Assembly: GCA_000146045.2 (NCBI GenBank)
Contig: BK006940.2
Span: forward strand, 160,001-224,000
Reading direction: 5' to 3'
Origin: TPA_inf: Saccharomyces
Taxonomy: Eukaryota
Length of the DNA stretch: 64,000 nt
In this document: positions 7,888-21,044 of the stretch, one piece after another
Numbering within the stretch: the first letter of the stretch is position 1
Layout: each line of letters starts with the position of its first letter
Translations under genes and position numbers: made by a program
The notes under the pieces: model-generated
What the model was told of the DNA's origin: nothing
What the model saw: the letters and a program-made list of their open reading frames with translations, nothing else
Databases searched by the model: none

Positions 7888-8496
7888 ATGCTAAATTATA
7901 AATTGATTTTATTGTTTTCCTCTTTCCTACAATTAATCTCTTTTTCTGGCTTTATGATATGTTGTTTAACTTCACCAATAATTAGAAACTGGGGGCTGGC
8001 TCAAGCTGCTGGAGTTTCATATGGTACCTTTGGTTACTGTAAAACTTTGAATTCTTTTTCCTGCTCTCGAGTACGTTTAATATATAACACCTCGAAAGAA
8101 ATATTACCTGGCCCTTCTCTTGAACGTTGGTGGCTGAGTCCTAAGGCAAGACATACAATAGGAGGACTTTTGATTTCGATACCGGTTGCTACATGTTTGA
8201 CTTTCATTTCTTTTGCACTTCCCTTGGTTATTATTTTTCTTTTTCAGACTGGAGGAACTAATGTCTCACTTATTACTTCCAACGCTATATTACACATATT
8301 GACACTTTTATCAACTATTTTTGCATGCACCGTGATCCTGTTACTTTGCATGCACCGTGATCCTGTTACAATTTCATCCTTATACGACTTGGTGTGGCTG
8401 GCTAACTGTTCCCTGTTCCCTCTGCTCGTTATTGGCGTGCATTTTCTCAGTTTTAGGTTTGATACGTCTGCGCAGTCAGACAGAAAACATAGCTAA
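7888..8496 (+). CDS. DCV1: Dcv1, SUR7/PalI-like four-TM membrane protein, 202 aa as encoded here (a truncated/frameshifted form, see the pseudogene feature)
   Basis: ATG at 7888; the track ORF starts 3 nt earlier at a TTG. The protein MLNYKLILLFSSFLQLISFSGFMICCL... has four hydrophobic segments. Recognised as YFR012W. Confidence 0.8.
   Translation: MLNYKLILLFSSFLQLISFSGFMICCLTSPIIRNWGLAQAAGVSYGTFGYCKTLNSFSCSRVRLIYNTSKEILPGPSLERWWLSPKARHTIGGLLISIPVATCLTFISFALPLVIIFLFQTGGTNVSLITSNAILHILTLLSTIFACTVILLLCMHRDPVTISSLYDLVWLANCSLFPLLVIGVHFLSFRFDTSAQSDRKHS
8320..8369 (+). repeat. Perfect 2 x 25-bp direct tandem duplication (tttgcatgcaccgtgatcctgttac x2) inside the DCV1 coding region
   Basis: Direct read: copy 1 at 8320-8344 and copy 2 at 8345-8369 are identical. 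Length 25 is not a multiple of 3. Confidence 0.95.
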
Positions 8497-9921
8497 AGAA
8501 GCTAGTATAGAGAACGTAGACAGTATTCTCAAACTATATGGAACGAGTCAAACATCAAGTTCCCTTGGCGAAAATTATCCACAAACAACTAAGGGCACAG
8601 ACCAATCTGTGTATGACATCACAAGTCTTTTTAATGATCTACCAAGGACCTTAGATCCCAATCAAGATAAACTGGCGGTAACAAATCAAGATGAACCACC
8701 GCCTGAAATCAAATCTCCATTGAAGCAAGCAGGTTTGGTGAGTTTCTTCGCTCCAAAGTTGAATGGTAAACAAATATTTTCTAGAAGGCATGTTGAAAAT
8801 CAAAAATCCTTATCTTTGGATGAAATCAATATAACCGACTTACCTGCAAAGCAAGAAAATGTGGAAATGCCTACTGAAAAAAAAAAGGCAAATATTTTAT
8901 ATTATGAGGGAATCTCAAGCCATTCACAAGATAACTACGACCCTCCTTGGTTATTTGGCGTTGAGGCTACCCAATCAGCCGATTGCTTTAAAATATATTC
9001 AAAAAAAAATCATTGTCTCACAGAGCCCCGCCAATATCAACTACAACAACCAAATAATTACCAGGATCAAAGTGAGGTTCCTCATAACTCTTTCATTCCT
9101 TGGTATTCCCGAAGAAGACCAGTAGGATACAACCACAATTACAATCGCTACTACTCACAGACAACTCATGGTAACAGCGAACACTCCCGACAAACATTGC
9201 CACAGACCTACAACATACACAGCATGCTCCCCAGAAAGTACAAGCCCGCCTACAAAAAACAGGCACATCGTGTGAAGAGTAATCCACAACCAGCTTATAC
9301 TTTCCAATGACAAAATAACAAGAATAAAGTACTATCCAATCTGCTTTTTTTGTACGCGTTTTGTTGGCGCGCCGCAATTTGAAAAATAAGAATAAAGTAC
9401 TTCTTGCTACTATTTAATGATTCCATCCGTATTCCACATCGTTGACGTCTGAGTCTGATAGACTAGTATATAGAAAATAAAAATAAGATAGAGTAAATAG
9501 TATGCTACTTTTATCGAGCCCATCTTTTTGAGCTTAATTTCTGAAACAAAGAAAGGAAGTGCCCATTTTTCCTCTTAACGGTTTCTAAAATTACTGAAGA
9601 GAAAACAACTTTTAGATGTAATTTATTTACATTAACATTAGCAGTGACTACAGAGGACAGGTATGGCGGTATGGCGGTATTTGTTAACATTGACTTTCCT
9701 TATGCGTGGAAGTACTAGTAATATTCCCTCTCGGATCATAAAAGTGAAATATCGTGCTTCACGATTTGCTGAAACTTTAACAAATTCATTGAAATTACGT
9801 GAGTTTATACTAATGAATGGACTTAATTTCTTAAGATGGTGATATCTTCCACATTGGTTTCGGCCAACAAAACTATCACTTACCAAGTACTTCAAGCAAA
9901 GTTTGCAATCCCCTATTGTTT

Positions 9922-20973: not shown

Positions 20974-21044
20974 TGCGCAAGCCCGGAATCGAACCGGGGG
21001 CCCAACGATGGCAACGTTGGATTTTACCACTAAACCACTTGCGC
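20974..21044 (-). tRNA. tG(GCC)F2: tRNA-Gly (GCC), 71 nt, identical to the copy at 2228-2298 but in opposite orientation
   Basis: Reverse complement of 20974-21044 equals GCGCAAGTGGTTTAGTGGTAAAATCCAACGTTGCCATCGTTGGGCCCCCGGTTCGATTCCGGGCTTGCGCA. A T7 terminator lies on the minus strand (plus strand aaaaaaa at 20962-20968). Confidence 0.95.

Follow-up and report, generated by a model that had tools for sequence, protein, structure and literature searches.

The window, a stretch of 64,000 nucleotides from chromosome VI of Saccharomyces cerevisiae, most probably carries the S288C-type truncation of an ancestral 465-aa DCV1 gene (YFR012W), a reading to which we assign a probability of about 95%. 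Two reference annotations can thereby be corrected, since DCV1 (YFR012W, 202 aa) and YFR012W-A (28 aa, described as "uncharacterized") are the two ends of this one ancestral gene. The lesion that separates them is derived: the gene is intact in the outgroups, and coding constraint acts on the part that was lost.

The duplication and the pieces of the gene

The 25-mer TTTGCATGCACCGTGATCCTGTTAC is found twice head-to-tail on the forward strand, at 8320-8344 and 8345-8369 (TRF score 100). The two copies are 100% identical and lie where the sequence-only reading, made before any database search, had placed a perfect tandem repeat. Identity ends exactly at the edges of the 25-bp unit, with 0 extra matching bases on either flank, and no other perfect tandem duplication in the 64 kb of the window has a unit of more than 12 bp; the chance expectation for a perfect 25-bp tandem is ~64000 x 4^-25, or ~6e-11. 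All other species and the single-copy S. cerevisiae alleles have just one instance of the sequence of the first copy (8320..8344). The second copy (8345..8369), opposite which all other alleles and species show a gap of 25 alignment columns, is designated the derived insertion, the choice of copy 2 over copy 1 as the new one being arbitrary.

As 25 nucleotides correspond to 8 codons plus 1 nt, the DCV1 frame shifts after codon 152. The S288C-type ORF (7888..8496, + strand, frame 1, ATG at 7888, 202 aa plus stop) runs into the early stop that had been pointed out, located at 8494-8496, and its product matches Dcv1p of S. cerevisiae S288C at 100% identity. Codons 1-152 of this ORF are ancestral and codons 153-202 are out of frame. 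When one copy is removed a reading frame of 1398 nt is obtained (465 codons plus stop, ending at 9310), in which codons 1-152 are joined in frame to the downstream ORF and the junction reads ...ACTVILLQFHPYTTWCGW..., exactly as had been reconstructed from the letters of the window.

The rest of the ancestral ORF, codons 153-465 plus stop, occupies 8370..9310 of the + strand and is fully open in window frame 2, the first base of ancestral codon 153 sitting inside the repeat. The ORF listed in this frame spans 8357-9310 (317 aa) and starts with GTG; the frame is already open from 8336, and its in-frame ATGs are located only at 8867 and 9224, which agrees with the earlier remark that no ATG stands near its start. 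The second of these ATGs begins YFR012W-A (9224..9310, + strand, 28 aa, MLPRKYKPAYKKQAHRVKSNPQPAYTFQ), an exact match to NP_076889.1 of S288C. The 28 codons of YFR012W-A are those that end the ancestral DCV1 ORF, and their segment shows a dN/dS of 0.03-0.22 across the genus.

The following history can be proposed for the allele. The ancestral gene would have encoded a 465-aa plasma-membrane protein of the SUR7/PalI family, with four TM helices (residues ~1-190) and a probably cytoplasmic tail of ~275 aa. In one S. cerevisiae haplotype the 25-bp segment, in the part of the gene that encodes the end of TM3, was then duplicated in tandem, presumably by a replication-slippage or repair error; slippage is only presumed because no microhomology flanking the 25-bp unit was found by sequence comparison at the repeat borders. 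Translation would leave the ancestral frame past codon 152, add 50 unrelated residues and terminate at 8494-8496, and the product would keep TM1-TM3 and lose the genuine TM4 together with the whole tail. The remnant at 8370-9310 is predicted to be untranslated, and it would still be open because the duplication is recent.

Copy number, haplotypes and coding constraint

The 25-mer is present in one copy at the DNA level in S. paradoxus, S. mikatae, S. kudriavzevii and S. eubayanus, whose syntenic ORFs encode 460-473 aa, and the S. uvarum orthologue, compared at the protein level only, has 477 aa. Many S. cerevisiae assemblies are likewise single-copy, some of them with fully intact 465-aa alleles (loci L001-L003 and L027-L034). 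The window is separated from these intact alleles by one 25-bp indel and 7-14 SNPs, and the flanking genes are the same; the intact allele P0045 (locus L027), which has Ile150 and Val166 as in S288C, is only 7 SNPs and the 25-bp indel apart. The single-copy state postulated by the sequence-only reading is thus found both in sister species and in many assemblies of S. cerevisiae itself.

The two-copy allele is present in S288C, in YJM1419, in further YJM assemblies and in assembly haplotypes of S. cerevisiae with ScRAP-style codes. Two-copy loci differ by 0-2 SNPs in the gene and by 1-8 mismatches per 6.6 kb, compared with 38-49 mismatches for single-copy loci; locus L008 (GCA_033956085.1) was left out of the SNP counts, as its ~98% identity and many scattered indels look like assembly noise. 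All two-copy alleles are therefore on one near-identical haplotype, and the duplication arose once and recently. Of the earlier description of the allele as a recent strain-specific truncation, the recent and truncating character stands, the allele being one young haplotype, but it is not strictly strain-specific, as it is shared by YJM and other assemblies. Because locus L006 combines the duplication with the ancestral T at 8886, the substitution T8886A is later than the duplication. The allele frequencies are those of unevenly sampled public assemblies and not of a population survey.

Across Saccharomyces, dN/dS amounts to 0.22-0.32 in codons 1-152 and to 0.12-0.31 in codons 153-465. Purifying selection acts on the downstream frame about as it does on the N-terminal part (dN/dS ~0.2), and the conservation that the sequence-only reading had expected of this frame is accordingly found throughout the genus. 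These observations bear directly on the possibility that the two-copy 202-aa form is ancestral and that the long ORFs elsewhere result from the deletion of one copy, which would have fused DCV1 to the sequence downstream. Such a history has in its favour only the reference annotation, in which the 202-aa protein stands as the gene, whereas the unit is single in every outgroup species, protein conservation extends over the downstream frame, family and paralogue homology runs through TM4 only in the single-copy form, and the two-copy alleles are nested as one young haplotype within S. cerevisiae diversity. Single-copy outgroups, downstream constraint and the young haplotype effectively refute an ancestral two-copy state, to which we give next to no weight. 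The same holds for the idea that the reference contains an error of sequencing or assembly. Assembly errors can yield short tandem duplications; nevertheless, the identical two-copy sequence recurs in independent GenBank YJM, ScRAP-style coded, Logan and ENA metagenome assemblies, the exact 202-aa product is found in 74 blocks of the collection, and 10/10 loci read have two copies. With the same sequence in so many independent records an artefact is rejected, its probability being just as negligible.

It could also be supposed that S288C makes a near-full-length protein (+8 residues) by a programmed +1 frameshift within 8336-8496, where the two frames overlap by 161 nt and from which the downstream frame is still completely open, although a recent event would leave that frame open anyway. 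In yeast, +1 frameshifting is used in a few genes (Ty1, Ty3, EST3, ABP140 and OAZ1), and the known heptamers CTTAGGC, GCGAGTT, CTTAGTT and GCGTGAC are absent from the whole gene. Moreover, all relatives have a single continuous frame; since neither the other species nor most strains need a frameshift, a site in this overlap would not be a conserved programmed one. In addition, of the private mutations that the two-copy haplotype carries beyond the frameshift, 4/4 are nonsynonymous in the old frame. With no known heptamer and no conserved two-frame arrangement in relatives, programmed frameshifting is rejected as highly improbable, if by a hair less so than the two preceding explanations. A recent truncation of the 465-aa gene remains the preferred reading.

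Family membership, paralogue and the truncated product

The reconstructed 465-aa protein matches the Pfam family SUR7 (PF06687) with 67.5 bits over profile positions 3-200 of 201 (cut-off 29.6). The 202-aa product scores 55 bits and its match covers only positions 3-165 of 201, so that its SUR7 domain is truncated. The tail gave no family match in the Pfam search. Hydropathy places the hydrophobic segments of the reconstructed protein at residues ~6-32, 89-129, 126-156 and 160-188, and the part encoded by 8370..9310 comprises TM4 (~residues 160-188) and the ~275-aa tail. With the full Pfam domain and four hydrophobic segments, the fourth TM helix and SUR7-family architecture anticipated on deletion of one copy are both borne out. 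For the intact protein AlphaFold2, given an alignment of 7 sequences, modelled helices at 4-28, 85-118, 125-153 and 156-210, a layout that gives weak support at a mean pLDDT of 38.6; because the confidence of the model is low, the four-helix bundle is based on the Pfam match and hydropathy only.

The SUR7/PalI family is defined by a Cys-containing, claudin-like motif in the first extracellular loop. In the alignment of seven orthologues F48, G49, Y50, C51, C59 and S60 are invariant, and the FGYCK...SCS of DCV1 aligns with the paralogue. The intact protein thus shares the full domain, four hydrophobic helices and the GYC...C first-loop motif with the family (PF06687; Sur7, Fmp45, Pun1, Ynl194c, Tos7/YOL019W), and a long C-terminal extension, as in intact DCV1, is typical of the nearest relatives. 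Unlike these tetraspans, the S288C product lacks a genuine fourth helix and tail. Word-indexed searches, started from a single sequence or from the profile of the orthologues, yielded nothing beyond DCV1 orthologues and alleles of Saccharomyces and missed the paralogue; the exhaustive HMMER profile search reached it and gave 266 proteins at E <= 0.001. Among the 150 matches listed of these 266, most proteins have 450-850 aa and the profile is matched to ~175-195.

TOS7/YOL019W, which we take to be the whole-genome-duplication paralogue of DCV1, was represented by the S. uvarum YOL019W-like protein P0210 (543 aa) in place of the S. cerevisiae protein. It has a four-TM domain and a long tail, an architecture like that of intact DCV1, and the profile search matches P0079/P0210 at E = 1.4e-24. 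In BLASTP the intact allele P0045 aligns with P0210 over residues 2-185 (30% identity, 103 bits, E = 4e-28), whereas the S288C product aligns over residues 2-153 only (64 bits), the alignment breaking at the junction; directly past the junction an FxPxxTWCxW motif is common to intact DCV1 and P0210. No significant similarity was found between the tails of DCV1 and P0210, where only a 12-residue match around YKPAYK / YQPAYK near both C-termini was obtained (E = 0.87). The similarity to YOL019W expected by the sequence-only reading therefore holds for the membrane domain, where the intact allele lengthens the alignment from residue 153 to residue 185, and fails for the tails, which are not alignable. 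This has no bearing on the truncation, because the claim of truncation rests on the orthologues.

In the S288C-type allele TM4 and the tail are replaced, as judged by hydropathy and the paralogue alignment, by the 50 out-of-frame codons at 8344..8493 on the + strand (LCMHRDPVTISSLYDLVWLANCSLFPLLVIGVHFLSFRFDTSAQSDRKHS). The Kyte-Doolittle 19-residue maximum of this segment is 1.87, against 2.32 for the ancestral TM4, and the stretch, more weakly hydrophobic than TM4, is predicted to mimic a fourth TM helix. Being moderately hydrophobic, it would explain why the 202-aa protein is still predicted to be four-pass.

Dcv1 has been studied as a four-pass claudin-like protein in S288C derivatives, and in BY4741 it was located at the plasma membrane, deletion and overexpression each giving phenotypes (bioRxiv 10.1101/2022.04.18.488708). 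Such studies examine a form in which the authentic fourth helix and conserved tail are missing. Since localisation and phenotypes are reported in the BY4741 background, the 202-aa form is probably one of partial function, hypomorphic or altered, rather than null. The same preprint noted a similarity of Dcv1 residues 112-172 to Osh3 (bioRxiv 10.1101/2022.04.18.488708); residues 153-172 within this span are out-of-frame sequence. The function of Sur7 itself depends on its C-terminal region (10.1101/2022.11.21.517310).

Other truncating alleles and comparison with known split genes

Allele comparison revealed a second variable site within the old ORF, a homopolymer that in the window is A10 (8877..8886, + strand). 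Ancestrally the run is A9 with a T after it (Met325), and S288C has the substitution T8886A (Lys). An A10+T allele, which encodes 331 aa, is found in EC1118, Vin13, AWRI1631 and P301, two listed sequences being present on 80 and 34 contigs. The A11+T allele encodes 404 aa and is also found in unrelated assembly projects; two 382-aa models that were looked up are present on 25 and 10 contigs.

These alleles raise the question whether DCV1 or its tail is under relaxed constraint, or is being lost, across S. cerevisiae, with the S288C duplication as one of several such changes, an extension for which we see even odds. The independent frame-disrupting alleles at the A-run point in this direction, as does the apparent minority of intact alleles among the matches listed. 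Polymorphism within S. cerevisiae, with nonsynonymous to synonymous ratios of 8:7 in codons 1-152 and 10:8 in the rest, suggests weaker constraint than the between-species ratio, in a very small sample. On the other side, the sampling is non-random and alleles were counted only from the matches listed, long-read errors in the homopolymer may account for some of the rare variants, intact alleles are still present, and the tail is under purifying selection in the sister species. Moreover, the recurrence of alleles alone is no proof of relaxed selection because A9-A11 homopolymers mutate fast.

We tentatively put forward, at somewhat less than even odds, the joint proposal that the tail has been repeatedly lost within S. 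cerevisiae by at least three common independent alleles (the 25-bp duplication and the slippages A9 -> A10 and A9 -> A11 at 8877-8886) and that studies of S288C Dcv1 describe an altered protein. If this is true, the loss of the tail would mean that constraint on a tetraspan membrane protein has been relaxed in this lineage, or possibly that its truncation was selected, and all functional work on S288C-derived 'Dcv1' would concern an altered protein with an out-of-frame pseudo-TM4.

In the literature on DCV1, YFR012W, YFR012W-A, YOL019W and Tos7 neither the duplication nor the link to YFR012W-A was found described; YFR012W is mentioned by Wood et al. 2001 (PMC2447204). The accessible text of PMC12157680 describes 'potential null alleles' or split ORFs of S288C, namely YDL037C/YDL039C (IMI1), AAD6/AAD16 (YFL056C/YFL057C) and SDC25, and in that text, supplementary tables aside, DCV1, YFR012W and YFR012W-A were not found. 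With a single lesion and an intact allele at the same locus elsewhere, the DCV1 allele is a strain-polymorphic frameshift. No broader principle is changed, because DCV1 is one more example of the well-known class of reference-strain frameshift alleles. As in the cases described in the accessible text of PMC12157680, one S288C lesion splits an ancestral ORF into separately annotated pieces, and the locus carries intact alleles elsewhere, both in sister species and in other strains. Unlike those cases, the lesion in DCV1 is a 25-bp tandem duplication and not a 1-bp indel or a stop codon, and published work takes the upstream fragment for a functional gene.

The 25-bp duplication and the ancestral frame of DCV1

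The gene DCV1 (YFR012W), encoding a SUR7/PalI-family membrane protein, is interrupted by a duplication of the unit TTTGCATGCACCGTGATCCTGTTAC, which occurs at 8320-8369 as two adjacent and perfect copies, with no base of extension on either flank. This is the sole perfect tandem duplication with a unit above 12 bp in the 64-kb window, and the chance expectation for such a 25-bp tandem is about 6e-11 (our own arithmetic, 64000 x 4^-25). The DCV1 ORF runs from the ATG at 7888 to a stop at 8494-8496 and gives a product of 202 aa with the same sequence as Dcv1p in the S. cerevisiae strains S288C and YJM1419. A second frame, listed from a GTG at 8357 to 9310, in fact opens at 8336 and contains just two in-frame ATGs (8867 and 9224). 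Removing one copy yields an ORF of 1398 nt (465 codons), joined after codon 152. The sequence-only reading had described the tandem, the early stop, the downstream frame lacking an ATG near its start and the in-frame join of codons 1-152, and all of these were confirmed, with its coordinates and junction sequence correct. Just one further perfect tandem duplication, with a 12-bp unit (ATCATCATCGTC x2), was found, at 42488-42511; by length it is in frame, and it is probably an Asp/Ser-type codon repeat. The window also holds three tRNA genes (2228-2298, 20974-21044 and 44924-44996), two of them tRNA-Gly(GCC) and one tRNA-Ala(AGC).

The single-copy 465-aa form is the ancestral one. The syntenic orthologues are single ORFs of 473 aa in S. 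paradoxus, 460 in S. mikatae, 468 in S. kudriavzevii, 469 in S. eubayanus and 477 in S. uvarum, and the order of the flanking genes (a UCH-domain, a DUF1690 and a WHIM1-domain gene) is unchanged in every related locus compared. Alignment of the junction DNA, which covered the first four of these species, gives a clean 25-column gap in all alleles and species except the window, so that each other species aligned has one copy. Between species dN/dS (Nei-Gojobori) is 0.22-0.32 for codons 1-152, 0.12-0.31 for codons 153-465 and 0.03-0.22 for the last 28 codons; the low values beyond the junction show that what was lost in S288C is real coding sequence.

Family homology is also regained once one copy is removed, the Pfam SUR7 match extending from profile positions 3-165 of 201 (55 bits) in the 202-aa product to 3-200 (67.5 bits). 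When 1.84 billion proteins were searched exhaustively with a profile, 266 gave E <= 0.001; of these, the 150 listed have lengths of mostly 450-850 aa and match up to profile position ~175-195, beyond the junction. Among the named matches are 'Tos7p' (Naumovozyma dairenensis) and, from S. uvarum, a 'YOL019W-like protein'. An intact allele aligns by BLASTP with the latter over residues 2-185 (103 bits, E = 4e-28), including the motif F-x-P-x-x-T-W-C-x-W directly past the junction, whereas the alignment of the S288C product ends at residue 153 (64 bits).

The other accounts of the split fare poorly. A two-copy ancestral state is excluded because the outgroup species are without the second copy, and an assembly artefact is likewise excluded, two copies being present in many independent assemblies. 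Programmed +1 frameshifting, by which S288C would still make the long product, is unlikely, since the known yeast heptamers are all absent and the two-frame arrangement is seen in no relative.

Alleles within S. cerevisiae

Allele classes were taken from the DNA of 30 S. cerevisiae loci, with the intact examples L027-L034 added separately. Besides the copy number of the 25-mer they differ in a poly-A run at 8877-8886 inside the ancestral ORF, whose length varies among strains. Intact alleles (loci L001-L003 and L027-L034) have one copy and A9 + T, which keeps the DCV1 frame intact, and a first ORF of 465 aa, so that single-copy intact alleles do exist within the species. The S288C type (window, L004, L005, L007 and L009-L013) has two copies, A10 + G and a first ORF of 202 aa. 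Two copies and 202 aa are also found in L006, which has the older A9 + T run, and in L008, which has A9 + G. Locus L008 (GCA_033956085.1) is only ~98% identical to the window, with many scattered indels and A9 for A10; as this suggests uncorrected assembly noise, the locus was left out of the SNP counts.

The remaining two-copy loci are nearly identical to the window, with 0-2 SNPs within the gene and 1-8 mismatches in a 6.6-kb span in which single-copy loci show 38-49 mismatches; this indicates that the duplication originated once, on a young haplotype. Among intact alleles, P0045/L027 shares Ile150 and Val166 with the S288C reconstruction and is separated from the window by no more than 7 SNPs and the 25-bp indel, which places it near the progenitor haplotype. 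S. paradoxus also has Ile150 (A at unit position 16), so this state is ancestral. In L006 the duplication is found together with an ancestral T at 8886, and the change T8886A (Met325Lys), which makes the A10 run, is therefore later than the duplication. The private changes of the two-copy haplotype 3' of the frameshift are 4/4 nonsynonymous in the ancestral frame, which fits drift after truncation, the number being too small for proof. The two-copy allele occurs in YJM1419, in more YJM assemblies and in the gene models CBM_HP2, BTE_HP and ASB_HP2 (ScRAP-style strain codes). Of the "recent strain-specific truncation" first proposed, recency stands and strict strain specificity does not.

Poly-A truncations arose independently of the 25-bp duplication. 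Single-copy A10 + T (331 aa; L022) is found in the wine strains EC1118, Vin13, AWRI1631 and P301, and single-copy A11 + T (404 aa; L014-L021) in many assemblies, unrelated projects included. A longer poly-A version that stays in frame appears in one 445-aa model. A second A9 run lies in the ancestral ORF at 9001-9009, where the 359-aa model P0054 shifts frame and one 445-aa model, P0041, has an extra in-frame Lys; with one assembly each, these two are possible long-read homopolymer errors. The short S. cerevisiae models P0022, P0024, P0025 and P0050 (137, 124, 145 and 278 aa) suggest that more alleles are disrupted, by frameshift or nonsense mutation, within the tail or before it, these rarer lengths, like the 359 aa, being known from protein models only. 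CAI-accession gene models with ScRAP-style codes (L014-L021, L032-L034) begin at Met23 and not Met1, and are therefore listed as 443, 382 and 309 aa instead of 465, 404 and 331, an annotation inconsistency and no biological difference. Intact alleles seem a minority among the records listed, the sampling of which is uneven. Polymorphism within the species (8 nonsynonymous to 7 synonymous in codons 1-152, 10 to 8 beyond) amounts to too few changes to establish relaxed constraint.

Consequences for Dcv1 and YFR012W-A

Hydropathy gives the ancestral protein four hydrophobic helices (~6-32, 89-129, 126-156 and 160-188), after which comes a tail of ~275 residues with a high content of S, Q, N, P, K and Y. 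Conserved tail blocks include ENVDSILKLYG, NILYYEGISSHSQ-NYDPPWLFG and KYKPAYK...NPQPAY. The S288C product has 50 unrelated residues in place of everything past residue 152. A stretch of moderate hydrophobicity among them, with a Kyte-Doolittle maximum of 1.87 where the real TM4 reaches 2.32, accounts for the protein still being called four-pass.

According to a preprint on BY4741 derivatives (10.1101/2022.04.18.488708), Dcv1 with an internal tag at residue 120 is found at the plasma membrane, and deletion and overexpression each give phenotypes; truncated Dcv1 is therefore probably expressed and active, and we infer that the S288C allele is a truncation or hypomorph and not a null. The same preprint leaves the truncation unmentioned and reports residues 112-172 as similar to the oxysterol-binding domain of Osh3. 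Over residues 153-172 (8344-8403) this similarity cannot be ancestral, since they are read out of frame and are peculiar to the duplication allele. Sur7 needs its C-terminal region for function (10.1101/2022.11.21.517310).

Annotated assemblies carry a 28-aa gene that shares its end base with the ancestral ORF. The peptide encoded at 9224-9310 matches exactly NP_076889.1, 'hypothetical protein YFR012W-A' of S288C, and corresponds to the final 28 codons of the ancestral frame, the best-conserved part of the tail. YFR012W-A is therefore no independent gene: it is the conserved C-terminus of the ancestral DCV1 product.

In the literature searched no description was found of the 25-bp duplication or of the relationship between DCV1 and YFR012W-A, although supplements or database notes may list either. 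The finding amounts to an annotation correction and a caution for Dcv1 studies. In principle the split is unsurprising, as it belongs to a familiar class of S288C alleles, the split ORFs, in which one lesion divides an ancestral ORF as it does here in DCV1.
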